DNA of 64,000 nucleotides, taken from NCBI RefSeq assembly GCF_046105845.1, contig NZ_CP151004.1; one strand, given 5' to 3'. Each line of letters starts with the position of its first letter. Position 1 is the first letter of the stretch. Positions 1,991 to 33,718 of this stretch are shown piece by piece. The stretch is from Escherichia coli. GTDB taxonomy: Bacteria; Pseudomonadota; Gammaproteobacteria; Enterobacterales; Enterobacteriaceae. The translations under genes and the position numbers were made by a program. A model generated the notes under the pieces. That model was not told the origin of the DNA. It was given only the letters and a program-made list of their open reading frames with translations, and ran no database searches.

Positions 1991-3324
1991 AAAACATTAT
2001 CCGAACTCCCGAAACGCATCCGCTGACCTGGCGTCTGCGCGATGACAAACAGCCAGTGTGGCTGGACGAATACCGCAGCAAAAACGGTTACGAAGGCGCG
2101 CGTAAGGCGCTGACCGGGCTGTCTCCGGACGAAATCGTTAATCAGGTAAAAGACGCTGGTCTGAAAGGGCGCGGCGGCGCGGGCTTCTCGACTGGCCTGA
2201 AATGGAGCCTGATGCCGAAAGACGAATCCATGAACATCCGTTACCTGCTGTGTAACGCGGATGAAATGGAGCCGGGCACCTATAAAGACCGCCTGCTGAT
2301 GGAGCAACTGCCGCACCTGCTGGTGGAAGGTATGCTTATCTCCGCGTTTGCGCTGAAAGCGTACCGTGGCTACATCTTCCTGCGTGGCGAGTATATCGAA
2401 GCGGCAGTGAATCTGCGCCGTGCCATTGCCGAAGCCACCGAAGCGGGTCTGCTTGGCAAAAACATTATGGGAACAGGTTTCGACTTCGAATTGTTCGTCC
2501 ATACAGGGGCTGGGCGCTACATCTGCGGTGAAGAAACAGCGTTAATCAACTCCCTGGAAGGGCGTCGCGCTAACCCACGCTCGAAGCCTCCATTCCCGGC
2601 AACCTCCGGTGCATGGGGCAAACCGACCTGTGTCAATAACGTCGAAACCCTGTGTAACGTTCCGGCGATCCTCGCTAACGGCGTGGAGTGGTATCAGAAC
2701 ATCTCGAAAAGTAAAGATGCTGGCACCAAGCTGATGGGCTTCTCCGGTCGGGTGAAAAATCCGGGCCTGTGGGAACTGCCATTCGGCACCACCGCACGCG
2801 AGATCCTCGAAGATTACGCCGGTGGTATGCGTGACGGTCTGAAATTCAAAGCCTGGCAGCCAGGCGGTGCTGGTACTGACTTCCTGACTGAAGCGCACCT
2901 TGACCTGCCGATGGAATTCGAAAGTATCGGTAAAGCGGGAAGCCGTCTGGGTACGGCGCTGGCGATGGCGGTTGACCATGAGATCAACATGGTGTCGCTG
3001 GTGCGTAACCTGGAAGAGTTTTTCGCCCGTGAGTCCTGCGGCTGGTGTACGCCGTGCCGTGACGGTCTGCCGTGGAGCGTGAAAATTCTGCGCGCGCTGG
3101 AACGTGGCGAAGGTCAACCGGGCGATATCGAAACACTTGAGCAACTGTGTCGATTCTTAGGCCCGGGTAAAACTTTCTGTGCCCACGCACCTGGTGCAGT
3201 GGAGCCGTTACAGAGCGCCATCAAATATTTCCGCGAAGAATTTGAGGCGGGAATCAAACAGCCGTTCAGCAATACCCATTTGATTAATGGGATTCAGCCG
3301 AACCTGCTGAAAGAGCGCTGGTAA
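1987..3324 (+). CDS. nuoF: NADH-quinone oxidoreductase subunit F (NADH/FMN binding, 4Fe-4S)
   Basis: 445 aa; [10 protein letters not shown] and [12 protein letters not shown] motifs; ATGA overlap with nuoE. Confidence 0.95.
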
Positions 3325-23569: not shown

Positions 23570-24531
23570 TGCGTAGCGCGCAGGTATACCGCTGGCAGAT
23601 CCCCATGGACGCGGGGGTGGTTCTGCGCGACAGGCGGTTAAAAACCCGCGACGGGCTGTATGTTTGCCTGCGTGAGGGCGAGCGCGAAGGGTGGGGGGAG
23701 ATCTCCCCACTACCGGGCTTCAGCCAGGAAACCTGGGAAGAGGCACAAAGCGTGCTGCTTGCTTGGGTAAATATCTGGCTGGCAGGTGATAGCGAGCTAC
23801 CGCAAATGCCTTCCGTGGCCTTTGGCGTAAGCTGTGCATTGGCAGAACTGACCGATGCGTTGCCGCAAGCAGCCAACTACCGTGCGGCACCGCTGTGTAA
23901 TGGCGATCCTGACGATCTGATCCTCAAACTTGCCGATATGCCTGGCGAGAAAGTGGCGAAGGTCAAAGTGGGATTGTACGAAGCCGTGCGCGACGGCATG
24001 GTGGTCAATCTGTTGCTGGAGGCAATTCCGGATCTGCATTTGCGTCTTGACGCGAACCGCGCCTGGACGCCGCTGAAAGGCCAGCAGTTTGCCAAATACG
24101 TTAACCCGGATTATCGCGACCGCATCGCGTTTCTCGAAGAGCCGTGCAAAACCCGCGATGATTCCCGTGCGTTTGCCCGTGAAACCGGCATTGCCATTGC
24201 CTGGGATGAAAGCCTGCGCGAGCCGGATTTTGCCTTTGTGGCTGAAGAGGGCGTGCGCGCGGTAGTTATCAAACCTACGCTCACGGGCAGCCTGGAGAAA
24301 GTACGCGAGCAGGTGCAGGCGGCGCATGCGCTGGGGCTGACGGCGGTGATCAGTTCATCTATTGAGTCGAGCTTAGGCTTAACGCAACTGGCGCGGATTG
24401 CCGCCTGGTTAACACCAGAGACTATTCCAGGGCTGGACACGCTGGATCTGATGCAGGTGCAGCAGGTACGTCGCTGGCCGGGTAGCACGCTGCCTGTCGT
24501 GGAAGTTGATGAGCTGGAGCGGTTGTTATGA
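23569..24531 (+). CDS. menC: o-succinylbenzoate synthase (enolase superfamily)
   Basis: 320 aa. Confidence 0.95.
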
Positions 24532-25883
24532 TCTTCTCTGACTGGCCGTGGCGTCACTGGCGGCAAGTGCGGGGAGAAGCCATCGCCTTACGTCTTAATG
24601 ACGAGCAACTCAACTGGCGCGGGCTTTGTGCTCGCGTCGATGAATTAGCCTCCGGCTTTGCGGCGCAGGGCGTTGTTGAGGGCAGCGGTGTGATGTTGCG
24701 GGCGTGGAATACGCCACAAACGCTGCTCGCCTGGCTGGCGTTACTGCAATGCGGGGCGCGGGTGCTGCCCGTGAACCCTCAGCTGCCGCAACCGTTGCTT
24801 GAAGAATTGCTGCCCAATCTGACGCTGCAATTTGCGCTGGTGCCGGATGGGGAAAACACGTTTCCGGCGTTAACGTCGCTGCACATTCAGCTGGTTGAAG
24901 GCGCACATGCCGCTGCGTGGCAGCCGACGCGTCTGTGCTCAATGACGTTGACCTCCGGCTCTACCGGTTTGCCGAAAGCCGCTGTTCATACTTATCAGGC
25001 CCATCTTGCCAGTGCGCAAGGTGTGTTATCGCTGATACCGTTTGGCGAGCACGATGACTGGTTGCTCTCTTTACCGCTGTTTCACGTCTCCGGTCAGGGA
25101 ATTATGTGGCGCTGGTTGTACGCTGGTGCGCGGATGACGGTACGTGATAAACAGCCATTGGATCAAATGCTGGCAGGCTGTACGCACGCTTCACTGGTGC
25201 CAACACAACTCTGGCGTTTGCTGGTTAACCGCAGTTCCGTTTCCCTGAAAGCGGTGTTACTTGGCGGCGCGGCTATCCCGGTCGAGTTGACGGAACAGGC
25301 GCGCGAGCAGGGGATTCGTTGCTTTTGCGGCTATGGTCTGACCGAGTTTGCCTCCACGGTGTGTGCGAAAGAAGCCGACGGTCTGGCAGACGTCGGTTCG
25401 CCGCTGCCGGGTCGGGAAGTGAAAATCGTAAACGACGAAGTGTGGCTGCGGGCTGCCAGCATGGCAGAAGGTTACTGGCGTAACGGGCAACTGGTTCCAC
25501 TGGTTAATGACGAAGGCTGGTACGCCACGCGCGATCGCGGTGAGATGCATAATGGCAAGCTGACCATTGTCGGACGTTTAGACAATCTGTTCTTCAGTGG
25601 TGGCGAAGGCATTCAGCCAGAAGAAGTCGAGCGCGTTATTGCTGCACATCCTGCGGTTTTGCAGGTGTTTATCGTTCCCGTTGCCGACAAGGAGTTTGGT
25701 CATCGACCGGTAGCGGTGGTGGAGTATGACCAGCAAACCGTTGATCTTGACGAATGGGTGAAAGATAAGCTGGCTCGTTTTCAACAACCGGTGCGTTGGC
25801 TGACGCTTCCACCTGAACTGAAAAACGGTGGTATTAAAATTTCACGTCAGGCGCTAAAAGAGTGGGTGCAACGCCAGCAATAA
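24528..25883 (+). CDS. menE: o-succinylbenzoate-CoA ligase
   Basis: 451 aa; AMP-binding motif [10 protein letters not shown]. Confidence 0.95.
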
Positions 25884-25992
25884 TTAACCATCCGTTTCAC
25901 TTCTCATTTCTGCCATTCCATTGCCGTTGATAAAGAGTTTATCTGTTAATCTGTAAATTGATGTGAAAACTCTTAGCAAACAGGATAATGCA

Positions 25993-26259
25993 ATGGAATG
26001 GCTGGTCAAAAAATCGTGCTGCGATAAACAAGATAACAGACATGTACTTATGCTCTGCGATGCTGGCGGCGCGATAAAAATGATCGCCGAAGTGAAGAGT
26101 GACTTCGCCGTGAAAGTGGGCGATTTACTCTCCCCTTTGCAGAATGCGCTTTACTGTATTAATCGTGAAAAGCTGCACACGGTGAAAGTCCTCTCGGCAA
26201 GCAGTTACAGCCCCGATGAGTGGGAACGGCAGTGTACAGCGGCAGGGAAAACTCAGTAA
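25993..26259 (+). CDS. pmrD: PmrD, connector protein between PhoPQ and PmrAB/BasRS signalling
   Basis: 88 aa from [10 protein letters not shown]; located between menE and the arn operon. Confidence 0.85.
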
Positions 26260-26639
26260 CGTTGTTTTGTCGTGGGCAGGAAAATCAACATCAACCCGCT
26301 CATAATACAAGCAACTCCCAGTAGTGCCTTCAGCGAAAAAGTTCCTTCCCAGTCGGGAAGTATCATTGATGCAATCCATACCAGCACATAGCTCATACTG
26401 AGTAAGGCATAGGCTTTGCTTAACGCAAGTTTATGTAGCGTTTTATACCAACAAAAAACGGAAAGCAGATAACCCAGCAGCCCGAGTAACAGTATCCGGG
26501 CATCCAGGCCAAAAGCTAACAGCGCCGCGATAAAATCCCATAAGTGCGTCATCGGCGGTAGATGACTCGCCGCATAACCCAGGCTTAATTGCGCAGCTGA
26601 GGCAATAATGACGCTGAATAATCCCCACATCAGGCCCAT
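26253..26639 (-). CDS. arnF: Undecaprenyl-phosphate-L-Ara4N flippase subunit ArnF
   Basis: 128 aa from [10 protein letters not shown], 4 TM; the 222-aa ORF in the track is an upstream extension in arnE territory. Confidence 0.85.
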
Positions 26640-26974
26640 TACACCGTACTCCCGAGGATCACAATGCCGCCAATAATGAACGCTACCCCACACCAGTGAC
26701 GCAGCGATACCGGCTCGTGCCACAGTTTTACCGCAGCCAGCGTCACCCAGACAAAATTCAGACTTAACATCGGGTAGGCAATGCCTACCGGTACGTTCTG
26801 CAAGACCAGCAGCCAGAGCACCATGGCAAGGCCAAGACAAGCCAGCGCCAGTCCCAGCCACAGCACGATATGTTTGCGCCGTTTGTTTATTGCCACAAAG
26901 CAGGTTGCCTGTTTCTGACACAACTGCCCGGCAACGCTAAGCAAGCTGGCAAAGACTAATGTTAGCCAGATCAT
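26639..26974 (-). CDS. arnE: Undecaprenyl-phosphate-L-Ara4N flippase subunit ArnE
   Basis: 111 aa small membrane protein. Confidence 0.85.
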
Positions 26975-28623
26975 TTGGGACGATACTGAATCAGCACCAG
27001 ACGCTCCTGACGATCGATGGCATCTGCGGGCGGAATGGCGAGACTGTTGATATCTTCATCGCGGTCAACCGAAAGCACGAGTGTAATAATCCCCTCCTGA
27101 CGATGTTGATTAAGCCAGTTTGCGAACTCATCACCGCTGACAAATCTCCCTTTCGCATCCGGATAATTAAGGCCGTATTTCAACTCACCTGTCTGGCGAT
27201 ACATGATGATGTCATCGCGTTGCAGGCTCCATGCCAGACCTGCGGCAACACCCACGCTGTCAGTAAGAATATAGCGGCTTGGCTGCAGTGATTCTTGTGT
27301 CATCTCGACAAAAAATTGCGGATGTTTTCCTTCCATGACTCTGTCAGGAATTGAAAATCCTACCAGCAACGCCAGCCCCAGCGGGCAAAGCGCGGCAAAA
27401 GACCAGGTCTTTTCGACGTTTGTTAAGGTGTACCAGCCGAAAAATGCCCATAGCGAAAAAATCGACCAGGCACAAAAGACTTTATAGCTCTCGAAGGTTT
27501 GCCACACTGGCGTGTTCATTGGTCCCCATGGGGAGACCACAAATGTGGCAATAATGCCAGTGACACCAAAAGCGATGTTAATCCAGCCATTAATCCGCAG
27601 CGCCAGAGGATTATTTTTTGCTGCCAGCAAAGCGTAATGCGCCATCAGCATTGCCAGAGGTGCAAAGCAGGAAAGAATATAGGTGGGCAATTTGCCTTTA
27701 GCGACGGAGAAAAACAGCAGCGGCATTATCGTCCAGCTCAACAAATAGACGGTTGCGGAATGCTTGCGGTTTTTCCAGCCTGCGTACAGTGCTCCGGGGA
27801 GTAATCCCAGCCACGGCAGGCTACCGGCAATGATGACCGGCAAGTAGTACCAGAACGGAGCTCTATGCTGAGCATCATCCATTGCAAAGCGTTGAATATG
27901 CTCAACCCAGAAAAAATAGTGCCAGAAGTCAGGCTCCCGCTGCGCTATCGCCAGTCCCCAGGGGAGAACCGTCAGTACGCAACTGATAACCGCCAGCCAG
28001 CCGTAAATAAAGAGATCTTTCCAGCGTTTTTGCGTCGCCACCCATGGCAGCACGCTTAATACCGGCACGGCAAGGGCGAGAAAACCTTTGGTCATCACTC
28101 CCATGCCGCAAGTGATTCCCAGCAGTAAAAATCCCGCGCTTTTGCCTTTCCACGTCTGTGCCTGCATTGCCAGCCAGAAGCTGCACATTCCCGCCACCAG
28201 CCAGAATGCAATAAACGGATCGAGCACGGCATAAGTGCCAATGGCATAGACAATAAACAATGAGAGATAAATCACTGCGGCGAGTAGAGCCAGACGTTTA
28301 TCGCGCCATAAGCGCAGAGTAAACCAGGCCACCAGCGCGGCAGTTAACAGGGTCGCAAAGATAACGCCTGCCCGCACACCAAAGTTATTTGCGCCAAATA
28401 GCCATTGCCCAATGCTGTTAATCCAGTATCCGGCAATGGGTTTTTCGAAATAACGTAGCCCTAACAGATGGGGCACAATCCAGTCGCCGGATGCCAGCAT
28501 TTCCCGACTGATTTCCGCATAACGCGTTTCATCGGGTTGCCAGAGCAGACGCGTGCTGATCGGTAACAGGTAATAGCAGGCAATAAACGCGAAGAGGCCG
28601 ATAAGGTAACGTACCGATTTCAT
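26971..28623 (-). CDS. arnT: Lipid A 4-amino-4-deoxy-L-arabinose transferase
   Basis: 550 aa polytopic membrane glycosyltransferase. Confidence 0.95.
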
Positions 28624-29513
28624 CAGCGACTACCCGCAATTTGTTGGCAACCCAGCCAGCCTTCACGTCCGGCAATATTTCCGCGAACAACTTGCCCGAG
28701 CGGCAACGTCCCTGATAACAGTTCGCTTAAAGGGCAAAATGTCACGCCTTCCTGGGCTGCCCGTTTCAGGAGATCCACAAAATTATGCTGATAAGCGCAG
28801 CCTTCAACTTCTGCATGAATGGTATAAACCGGCGTGCCTTTATCTCGCAGGATGCGGTTGAGTAACCAACCGTTAAAATCTTCTGCTTTCACATCCCGAC
28901 CAATCACTTCATCCCAGGTGGGTAAGGTCACCGGAATTTGCGCAGTGCCAGGGTTTCCTGATTCGAGCAGTGGACGGAACGGCATGGCCCCACGACAATC
29001 GCTGTTGTAGCGCAAATGGAACGCTTCTTTTGCTTCGATCACCTGCTGGTCGGCACGCCAGCCCGCAGCGGCAGAACAGGTTACCGGTTGACCGATAATC
29101 TCTTCCAGAGTGCGAAGGCCGCGTGCAATATCGTCGACCAATGTTTGCCGATCCCAGTTACCGCTATGGGCTTGCCAGGCATGGTGATCCCAGGCGTGCA
29201 GGCCGACTTCGTGGTGTTTAGCCGCTTCACGAATGATATCGGCATTGGCATGACCAATCTCTTTACCTGGCCAGGCCGTACCTGCCAATAAAATATCCCA
29301 GCCATAAAGCGATGCTGCGTTTGAGCGCAGCATCTTCCACAAAAACTGTGGCTTCACCAGTCGCCAGAGATGGCGGCCCATATTGTCCGGCCCGACGCTG
29401 AAAAAAATGCTGGCCTGAATATTATGCTTACTCAAGATTTCCAGCAGACGCGGCACGCCTTCACGGGTGCCACGAAAGGTATCGACATCAATGCGTAAGC
29501 CTACTTTGGTCAT
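28623..29513 (-). CDS. arnD: Undecaprenyl-phosphate-Ara4FN deformylase
   Basis: 296 aa, polysaccharide deacetylase fold. Confidence 0.95.
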
Positions 29514-31491
29514 GATGGTTTATCCGTAAGCTCGACGGTGCGCAAGAAGAAATCCAGCGTTTCGTCGATGGTTTCCTGCATATCAATTTTCGGCTCCCAG
29601 TCCAGGCAGCGGCGGGCATTGCGGATGCTTGGTTTACGATGCTCTACGTCCTGATATCCTTTGCCGTAGTAGCTGCTACTTTCGACAACGCGAAAGCCCG
29701 CAAACGGTGGGAAGTGATGGCGCAGCGGATGTTTTTCGAAGCTCGCCAGCAGCATCTCGCCCAGTTCCTCAATGCTCGCTTCGTTCTCAGGATTGCCAAT
29801 GTTGATAATTTCGCCGTCGCAGCGATTTCCCGCATTTTCGATAATGCGGTACAACGCCTCGATACCATCCCGGATATCAGTAAAGCAGCGTTTTTGTTTT
29901 CCGCCATCAATTAGCTTAATTGGTGAACCTTCTACCAGATTGAGAATGAGTTGCGTAATAGCGCGGGAGCTGCCAATTCGCGCTGCATTAAGGTTATCCA
30001 GTCGTGGCCCCATCCAGTTAAACGGGCGGAAGAGGGTGAACTGTAAACCCTCTTTTTCGCCATAGGCCCAGATCACCCGATCAAGTAATTGTTTAGACAC
30101 CGAATAAATCCAGCGTGGTTTATTCACCGGGCCGACGATTAAATTAGAATGGTCCTCATCGAAGTATTTATCGCTACACATCCCATAAACTTCTGAAGTC
30201 GACGGGAAGATGATTCGCTTACGGTACTTCACGCAGTAGCGGATAATGCGTAGATTCTCTTCAAAATCGAGTTCAAATACGCGCAGTGGGTTGCGGGTAT
30301 ATTCAATCGGCGTGGCTATCGCCACCAGCGGCAAGACGACATCACATTTTTTGATGTGATACTCAATCCATTCGGAATGAATACTGATATCGCCTTCGAC
30401 AAAGTGAAAATGCGGATGATTCAGAAAACGGCTTATCGCATCGCTGCCAATATCCAGACCGTAAACTTCATAATGATCTTCGCGCAGCAGGCGTTCTGTC
30501 AGATGGTTGCCAATAAAGCCATTCACCCCGAGGATGAGTACCCGGGTACGGCGTCGGGCGGTGCAGGCAGGCTGGCTATTCAAGCGTGAACCTTGCACCA
30601 GGCCCAGCGTCTGCGCTAATTGCGAGCCCTGCATAGTAATGCCGTCGCCCGCCTGTCCGGTGACGATTTCCAGCGCGCCATCGCCACAGGCAATCAGCAG
30701 TGGCGCAACAGAAATCACGCTCCCCGGTTGTGCTGCGGGCGCATGAGAATGCACGCGTGACGACCAGACGGTAAATTTCTGATTACCAACATAGCTGAAG
30801 GCACCCGGCCACGGATCGGCAACGGCACGCACCATGTTGTGCAGCACGGATGCCGGTTTATGCCATTCGAGGAAACTGTCTTCCGGTGTTCTGCGACCAA
30901 AACAGGTGGCTTCGTTTTCGCGCTGGGCGATTTCCAGAATATTACCGTGTTTAATGGCGGGTAATGTCTGCTCCAGTAGCTGGCGCGCGGCATGGCACAA
31001 TTTATGATGCAGCGTAATAGCGATATCGTCTGGCGCAATGGCAATGCGCAGTTGCGCCACAATGGCCCCGGCATCGGCACGTTTCACCATTCGGTGCAAT
31101 GTAACGCCAGTTTCCGTTTCACCGTTCACCAGCACCCAGTTCAGCGGCGCGCGACCACGATATTTTGGTAACAGCGAACCATGCAGATTAAATGCACCTG
31201 CGGGAGCGAGCTGCAAAATCTCGTCGCAAATAAGATGGCGATAATAAAAAGAGAAAATCACATCTGGTGATAGTTGGGCAATGCGTTCCACCCACAGCGG
31301 ATGATTAACGTTATCCGGCGCATAAACCGGAATGCCCCTTTCCGCCGCCAGACGAGCTACCGAACCATAAAAGGCTTTTTCACCGGGATTATCAGTATGA
31401 GTAAAAATAGCGCTAATTTCGTAACCGGCAGCCAGCAGGGCTTCAATACCGAGGCATCCCATATCGTGGTAGGCAAAAACGACGGTTTTCA

Positions 31492-31492
<1 letters not shown>
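29510..31492 (-). CDS. arnA: Bifunctional UDP-GlcA decarboxylase / UDP-Ara4N formyltransferase
   Basis: 660 aa; N-terminal formyltransferase domain, C-terminal SDR domain with [10 protein letters not shown]. Confidence 0.95.
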
Positions 31493-32463
<971 letters not shown>

Positions 32464-33621
32464 TTATTGTCCTGCGAGTTGCTGAAGGGCTGTGATGACG
32501 CGGTCGGCATCGGCGGTAGTCATATCCGGGAACAGCGGCAACGAACAGATGCGTTCGCTATTCCATTCGGTATTCGGTAACGACAGCGTGGGAAAACGCT
32601 CGCGATAATATTTTTGTGTGTGAGCGGCGCGGAAATGTAACCCGGTACCAATACCTCTTTCTTTTAACGCTTCCATCAACGCATCGCGACTGATACCACA
32701 ACGTTGTTCATCGACACGAATAATAAACAGATGCCAGGCGTGAACGTGCGGCCAGGCGGGAAGGCTTAATGGCTGAAAGGGGAGAGCTGCCAGTGCTTGC
32801 TGATATTGCTGGGCAATTTCGCGCCGACGGGTGTTGAGGTGCTCTAATTTGGCTAACTGGGTCAGGGCAATCGCGGCGTTAATATCGGTCAGATTATACT
32901 TATAGCCCGGCGTTAAGACTTCAGCTTGCGGTGCACGGCCCCAGGTTTGTCTGTCATAGGCATCGACACCCAGACCGTGAAATTTTAGCATCCGTAGCTG
33001 GCGGGCAAGGTTTTCATTATCAGTAACAATCAGGCCACCTTCCGCACAGGTAATATTTTTGATGGCGTGAAACGAAAAAATAGCGGTACCTTTTGCGCCA
33101 ATATGTCGGCCTTTGTAATACGTACCGACGGCATGGGCAGCATCTTCGATAACTGCGATGCCGTAACGTTCGCCAATGGCGCGAATGGCGTCAATATCTG
33201 CTGGCGCACCGGCATAATGCACCGGAATGATGGCTTTAGTGCGTGGCGTAATGGCTGACTCGATCGCTTCAGGCGTGACCATCAGCGTATCGTGGTCGAC
33301 ATCCACCATTACCGGCGTTGCACCCAACAAGGAAATCATATTGAGGGTTGAAACCCAGGTCAGGGAAGGCGTAATCACTTCATCGCCCTTGCCAATTTCC
33401 AACGCCATTAGCGTGATATGCATTCCGGCGGTGGCTGAATTGACCGCGATGGCATGCTGATTTCCCGTCAACTGGCAAAAGGCTTGTTCAAGCGCCTGAT
33501 TCTTCGGACCGGTTGTGATCCAACCGGATTCGAGAACCTCTTTAACTGCAGCGAGTTCCTCCACGCCCATTGCTGGTCGCGAAAAAGGCAAAAATTCTGA
33601 CATTGTTTTTCCTTCCGCCAT
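32464..33621 (-). CDS. arnB: UDP-4-amino-4-deoxy-L-arabinose aminotransferase (DegT family)
   Basis: 385 aa from [10 protein letters not shown]; PLP-lysine region [13 protein letters not shown]. Confidence 0.93.
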
Positions 33622-33701: not shown

Positions 33702-33718
33702 ATTAACTTAACCTTAAG
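33702..33718 (-). promoter_or_regulatory. Candidate PmrA/BasR box in arnB promoter
   Basis: On the arnB sense strand reads CTTAAG-GTTAA-GTTAAT, two hexamer half-sites with 5-nt spacer; TAAAAT -10-like element follows. Confidence 0.6.

Follow-up and report, generated by a model that had tools for sequence, protein, structure and literature searches.

PmrD is a PhoP-induced connector protein that protects and stabilizes phospho-PmrA, and the arnBCADTEF operon is activated by PmrA. In Escherichia coli, pmrD and arnF, the last gene of that operon, are convergent neighbors, and several described systems bear on this arrangement. The closest are the convergent overlapping gene pairs of bacteria in general, which lie on opposite strands, with each stop codon inside the last codons of the other gene, and in which the overlap is short and falls in unconstrained C-termini. 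A census of E. coli found 663 overlapping adjacent pairs, 75 of them convergent (PMC4161906), and convergent CDS overlaps have been ascribed to the movement of stop codons (PMC4161906, PMC2716372). The pmrD/arnF pair shows no structural difference from such pairs; what distinguishes it is that both genes belong to one circuit (PhoP to PmrD to PmrA to arn).

Convergent genes have also been described at the level of their transcripts. In the ExcludonFinder analysis (Sanmartin et al., NAR 2025, PMC12288877), arnF-pmrD is one of 165 convergent excludons of MG1655, all of them present in 50% or more of 58 transcriptomes (RNA-seq), and the authors point to the pathway that its two genes share. The likeness is that of adjacent convergent genes whose transcription units overlap in RNA-seq coverage. 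In a classical excludon, however, the two genes are expressed reciprocally, each to the exclusion of the other, and RNase III processes the transcripts, whereas pmrD and arnF would be expected to be co-induced in low Mg2+ rather than to alternate. The pair also resembles the convergent pairs of the Ju/Liu SEnd-seq study (bioRxiv 10.1101/2022.10.23.513370), where RNA polymerases arriving from the two directions converge close to the gene boundary, but the bidirectional terminators and RNAP collisions of that study need a stem-loop between the gene boundaries, and the pmrD/arnF junction has neither intergenic space nor a palindromic terminator. Finally, PmrA represses pmrD in Salmonella, forming a negative feedback (Kato, Latifi & Groisman 2003, as summarized in PMC3140997).

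We analyzed a stretch of 64,000 nucleotides of the E. coli chromosome (hereafter, the window), whose sequence at this locus shares 99.5% identity with strain N3 and ~97% with K-12 derivatives. The features around the junction are as follows:

24528-25883, plus strand: menE, the upstream co-directional neighbor of pmrD
25993-26259, plus strand: pmrD CDS, 88 aa, ATG at 25993, stop TAA at 26257-26259 (direct reading and ORF list)
26253-26259: tail-to-tail CDS overlap TCAGTAA, 7 nt common to pmrD and arnF
26639-26253, minus strand: arnF CDS, 128 aa, ATG at 26639, stop TGA at 26255-26253, last gene of the arnBCADTEF operon
26639-26974, minus strand: arnE
26971-28623, minus strand: arnT
26639-33603, minus strand: rest of the arn operon upstream of arnF (arnE, arnT, arnD, arnA, arnC and arnB, the last reaching 33603)

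A preliminary description of this DNA had placed the pmrD stop within the last codons of arnF at 26253-26259, and direct reading together with the ORF list showed these coordinates to be exact. In the pmrD frame, the shared bases comprise the final base of an ACT codon plus the codons CAG and TAA; in the arnF frame, they make up the final base of CGT plus TAC and TGA (tca on the plus strand). The genes thus lie on opposite strands, 3' to 3', each with its stop inside the other CDS. The mechanical ORF list starts pmrD at an upstream GTG (25963) instead of the ATG at 25993 that begins the 88-aa protein. As stop codons are set by the reading frame, the overlap is independent of the choice of start codon.

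An overlap of this kind could in principle be an artefact, in that one of the stops is wrong through annotation or sequencing, or one of the ORFs is no real gene. Some PmrD variants in the databases do have other C-termini (103-109 aa), evidence that the 3' end is subject to frameshifts or homopolymer errors. However, the products of both genes score far above the cutoffs of their NCBIfam equivalogs (PmrD 172 bits, cutoff 96; ArnF 138 bits, cutoff 99), the structures of the 88-residue E. coli PmrD ending in GKTQ (2JSO, 4HN7) were solved with exactly this C-terminus, and thousands of complete genomes, obtained independently, carry the identical junction. In all four strains inspected (N3, Origami2, which is a K-12 derivative, A24 and OkiPb01675), the RefSeq/PGAP annotation shows this 7-nt overlap, and in N3 the locus is collinear with the window and has identical coordinates. 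The equivalog matches, the PDB structures and the RefSeq annotation identify both ORFs as genuine protein-coding genes. With the recurrence across genomes, these data effectively refute the idea of an annotation artefact, to which we attach almost no probability, and the 7-nt overlap of pmrD and arnF is confirmed as real.

The variant C-termini merit a brief description. The pmrD 3' end carries an A-run, GGGAAAAC, at 26245-26252. Two E. coli PmrD variants, P0006 (109 aa) and P0017 (103 aa), are frameshifted and have extended C-termini; that of P0006 follows the frame of an ORF at 26220-26324 of the window, and its overlap with arnF would grow to ~70 nt. These extensions could be real alleles or homopolymer sequencing errors.

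Within its own surroundings the overlap is unremarkable. The 50 kb around the site hold five convergent pairs, with spacings of -7, +19, +38, +40 and +66 nt, and one of the five overlaps. The pmrD/arnF overlap is therefore no statistical anomaly. The CDS overlap is a standard annotated feature of E. coli, already known, and the overlap of the transcripts has already been published, and as it stands the finding confirms a genome feature of textbook type and adds little to it.

To place the junction in a wider context, we compared it across genomes. The locus was found in 5404 of 5426 complete E. coli genomes. The exact 47-nt junction core (26241-26287) was present in 3392 of the 5426, and a further 1842 had it with one or two mismatches; both pmrD and arnF were annotated under the 47-nt junction in all of the matches listed. 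In related taxa the CDS ends were arranged as follows:

Escherichia albertii: 7-nt overlap; pmrD ends in TAG, which is a silent change in arnF
Salmonella enterica and subsp. diarizonae: 6-nt overlap in an unrelated palindrome, TCATGA; PmrD of 85 aa, ArnF of 125 aa
Citrobacter amalonaticus: CDS ends separated by +3 or +9 nt

The overlap is thus reproducible across independent genomes, being -7 nt in E. coli and E. albertii and -6 nt in Salmonella. The preliminary description had proposed conservation of the overlap in other Enterobacteriaceae as a check, and the outcome was divided: an overlap is found in Escherichia (7 nt) and in Salmonella (6 nt, with a different sequence), but C. amalonaticus has gaps of 3-9 nt. 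It is the near-zero-spacer, tail-to-tail packing that is kept in Escherichia, Salmonella and Citrobacter, and not the sequence of the overlap. Distant PmrD homologues recovered by profile search are not beside arnF on the contigs for P0082, P0080 and P0076; adjacency was judged only where the flanking DNA sufficed, and the P0073 contig is too short for this. The C. amalonaticus gaps and the distant pmrD genes indicate that the linkage is not essential to PmrD function.

The protein families give a similar picture of the shared bases. The match to the PmrD profile spans positions 1-85 of 85 and ends before the overlap, and the match to the ArnF profile reaches residue 122 of 128 and likewise ends before it. 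Since the family profiles stop short of the overlap, the shared bases encode dispensable C-terminal tails.

Several genomes showed further changes near the junction. The arn operon is apparently deleted in Escherichia sp. MOD1-EC7003 (L004 3260-3920) and in "E. coli" SCPM-O-B-8794 (L005 3250-3680), where arnF is reduced to a 3' remnant between pmrD and ais, and pmrD persists without its convergent partner. The PmrD C-terminus of SCPM-O-B-8794 is changed and ends in CKSANNVVLQ. In Salmonella enterica subsp. arizonae CCUG 6322T (L011 ~3290-3320), arnF is apparently frameshifted near its 3' end by a 7-nt duplication (CACAATG CACAATA), which shifts its stop 23 nt away from pmrD; this arnF is either a pseudogene or an assembly error.

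Based on these data, we consider that this is probably an ordinary compact convergent junction, in which the overlap arose from stop-codon drift and is not a conserved element, and from which each transcript runs into the opposite gene. The two genes would simply abut tail to tail without an intergenic spacer, and the bases that they share, in poorly conserved C-terminal tails, would reflect the drift of two stop codons. Two observations sit less easily with such a neutral origin. The spacing of -7 to +9 nt persists in Escherichia, Salmonella and Citrobacter despite turnover of the junction, which could indicate selection for an obligatory overlap of the transcripts, and in several lineages a hairpin within arnF (described below) exceeds the stability expected from synonymous recoding.

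The preliminary description had also held that the 3' ends of the pmrD and arnF transcripts must overlap. This follows from the CDS overlap, which makes the two mRNAs overlap by at least 7 nt, and it agrees with the RNA-seq analysis of MG1655 (PMC12288877). The actual extent is likely to be larger. A scan for canonical promoters and terminators over 25500-27100 showed no terminator past either stop, with minus-strand hits only inside arnF, and Rfam searched at a permissive E-value gave no match over the same interval. The two stops leave no intergenic space between them, and no bidirectional intrinsic terminator (a G+C-rich palindromic stem-loop with A- and U-tracts) lies there. An intergenic terminator would have no room here, and we detected none; each RNA polymerase must therefore enter the opposite gene. 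A relaxed scan for hairpins and U-runs returned weak intragenic candidates alone, 140-180 nt inside the opposite gene. The complementarity between the pmrD and arnF mRNAs is probably 100-200 nt or more.

How these transcripts end can be considered from the same data. Rho normally curtails untranslated read-through, and across the first ~130 nt beyond the pmrD stop the C/G ratio is 1.3-1.85, so the read-through RNA of pmrD is C-rich and compatible with Rho loading on untranslated RNA. If the junction is an ordinary one, as we favor, the transcripts would most likely end via Rho on this untranslated, fairly C-rich RNA, at the weak intragenic hairpin/U-run sites or through head-on collisions. We infer this mode of termination, as we do any effect on expression, and the default expectation is that the effect of the overlap on expression is small. 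Published catalogues of 3' ends gave little further information on the junction: the Term-seq supplements of Adams 2021 hold no pmrD or arnF entry among those listed, and the TRS 2023 catalogue holds no end on the 3' side of pmrD or arnF among the entries listed, such absences being weak evidence.

Two related observations come from the same catalogues. The TRS catalogue (PMC10687069, Supplementary Data 3) reports an "Internal" sense 3' terminus in MG1655 pmrD, ~15 nt into the gene (~26008, plus strand) and directly after AUGGAAUGGCUGGUCA, which suggests premature termination or processing at the start of the gene. The convergent-excludon list also includes pmrR-basS (basS locus, outside the window; Table 1 of PMC12288877), and the PmrA/PmrB polymyxin circuit thus has two gene pairs catalogued as 3'-overlapping transcripts.

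The relaxed scan raised a second way in which the transcripts could end, namely at a dedicated terminator inside each opposite CDS. The candidate structures are as follows:

26398-26446, plus strand: weak candidate 3' structure for pmrD read-through; hairpin core at 26398-26423, antisense of the arnF codons for LSKAYALLS
26110-26074, minus strand: weak candidate 3' structure for arn read-through; hairpin CGGCGAAGT-loop-ACTTCGGCG at 26110-26085, then AUCAUUUUUAU

The plus-strand candidate has its U-run, CGTTTTAT, at 26439-26446 (from 26439 it is also given as CGUUUUAU) and lies ~140-185 nt beyond the pmrD stop; the minus-strand candidate lies ~145-180 nt beyond the arnF stop, in pmrD antisense. 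Were both used, the overlap of the transcripts would be a defined stretch of ~330 nt, an arrangement compatible with a neutral junction and equally with a regulatory one. Candidates occur at a similar distance (160-181 nt) on the plus strand in E. coli, E. albertii and Salmonella and on the minus strand in E. coli and Salmonella, but the minus-strand candidate is missing in E. albertii. Among the convergent excludons of E. coli, 146 of 165 have overlapping predicted terminators (PMC12288877), a set-wide figure that is not specific to this pair. Against dedicated terminators, neither of the embedded hairpin/U-run sites is a canonical terminator in the standard scan, and their U-runs are short and 5-17 nt off the main stem.

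The arnF hairpin was also compared with synonymous alternatives. The stability of the native plus strand was set against that of 1000 synonymous recodings, and the fraction of recodings at least as stable as the native sequence was:

C. amalonaticus AUH: 0.001
E. albertii: 0.02
K-12: 0.04
S. enterica: 0.04
S. diarizonae: 0.07
C. amalonaticus ku-bf3: 0.17
Window strain: 0.23
C. amalonaticus S646: 0.64

The native hairpin therefore beats its recodings in K-12, E. albertii, S. enterica and C. amalonaticus AUH (p ~0.04, 0.02, 0.04 and 0.001), which favors a dedicated site, but it is no more stable than recodings in the window strain and in C. amalonaticus S646. Moreover, the region was picked post hoc, and 8 of the 11 pairs follow from the invariant peptide LSKAYALLS itself; only the three third-position pairs can vary, and their complementarity is not consistent across lineages. 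The hairpin is about equally stable on the arnF sense strand, so it is not assignable to the pmrD transcript. We did not adopt a conserved arnF RNA structure as the pmrD terminator, given the peptide-forced pairs, the inconsistent free pairs and the non-significant result in the window strain. The stability of the hairpin in several lineages hints at a constraint at the RNA level. Overall, termination at dedicated sites inside the opposite genes is an unlikely account of the junction, with perhaps a modest chance of being correct. Apart from any role in termination, LSKAYALLS (26398-26423) is in effect a "codon-palindromic" peptide, in that the invariant ArnF sequence gives a hairpin of 11 bp on either strand in every genus examined.

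The preliminary description had further raised the potential for transcriptional interference or antisense pairing. Because pmrD and arnF are linked in one feedback circuit, a regulatory role is more plausible than it would be for a random pair. The regulatory elements relevant to such a role are as follows:

25925-25941, plus strand: PhoP-box-like repeat CGTTGATAAAGAGTTTA upstream of pmrD; weak, with 3 mismatches, a consensus match only
33702-33718, minus strand: PmrA/BasR-box-like direct repeat CTTAAGGTTAAGTTAAT, ~100 nt upstream of arnB, with 2 mismatches to CTTAAT-N5-CTTAAT

The scans for PhoP and PmrA boxes yield matches at the level of a consensus, which we took as context and not as evidence. 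The repeat at 33702-33718 is presumably the operator of the arn promoter, a function that we assign from knowledge of the PmrA regulon. The menE-pmrD spacer is 109 nt long and contains the pmrD promoter region, and in the window strain it has no PmrA-box-like site at three or fewer mismatches.

A functional excludon at this locus would constitute a negative feedback, in which read-through of the arn operon runs antisense across pmrD and its promoter and lowers pmrD expression. PmrA-P would activate the 7.4-kb arn operon, and polymerases passing the arnF stop would continue antisense through the 267-nt pmrD and cross the PhoP-dependent pmrD promoter, only ~330 nt away. Expression of pmrD could then be lowered by collision, by promoter occlusion or by RNase III cleavage of the duplex, and conversely arnF and arnE could be dampened by read-through from pmrD. 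Such a feedback would gain from there being no terminator between the arnF stop and pmrD with its promoter, from the reported overlap of the MG1655 transcripts, in which the pair was highlighted as belonging to the same pathway (PMC12288877), and from the tight spacing kept in three genera. It would also accord with the PmrA-mediated negative feedback on pmrD already known in Salmonella (PMC3140997). The logic is alike, in that active PmrA lowers pmrD expression, but the known Salmonella mechanism is the binding of a protein at the pmrD promoter and not antisense transcription, and we found nothing that ties it to the 3' overlap. As the spacer of the window strain has no PmrA-box-like site, which likewise speaks for the proposal, another route of feedback is conceivable there.

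Other data weigh against this proposal. Our literature search found no locus-specific evidence for interference or dsRNA at pmrD/arnF. The supplements of the p19 dsRNA capture study hold no pmrD/arnF cluster among the entries listed, a result that says little, as pmrD and arnF are both expressed at a low level in standard media, and in the same study RNase III products were far scarcer at convergent overlaps than at divergent ones. Untranslated read-through is also normally curtailed by Rho. In addition, pmrD was kept in the two Escherichia genomes in which the arn operon was apparently deleted, small gaps are tolerated in C. amalonaticus, and the distant pmrD homologues sit elsewhere in their genomes. 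On balance, we regard a functional excludon of this kind as doubtful, although the logic of the circuit makes negative feedback by arn read-through the most attractive regulatory hypothesis. A more specific form of the idea is that, in Escherichia, PmrA-driven arn read-through antisense over pmrD and its promoter forms a negative feedback that supplements or replaces promoter-level repression by PmrA, with the zero-spacer geometry (-7 to +9 nt) then having been selected; this we consider improbable. Read-through feedback, if real, would bring a cis-acting transcriptional level of control into the well-studied PhoP-PmrD-PmrA circuit, which governs lipid A modification and polymyxin/colistin resistance, and might help to explain differences between species in the behavior of the circuit.

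During the comparison with strain N3, we noted additional differences elsewhere in the window. Collinearity with N3 breaks at ~41.6-41.9 kb and at ~49.4-51.2 kb of the window; one of the breaks corresponds to an ISNCY transposase in N3 and the other to ~1.7 kb that is present in the window and absent from N3. Identity to N3 elsewhere is ~97-98%. By homology to N3, the window also contains at 15596-16818 a gene for an ElaD/SseL-family deubiquitinase, which is annotated as frameshifted in strain N3.
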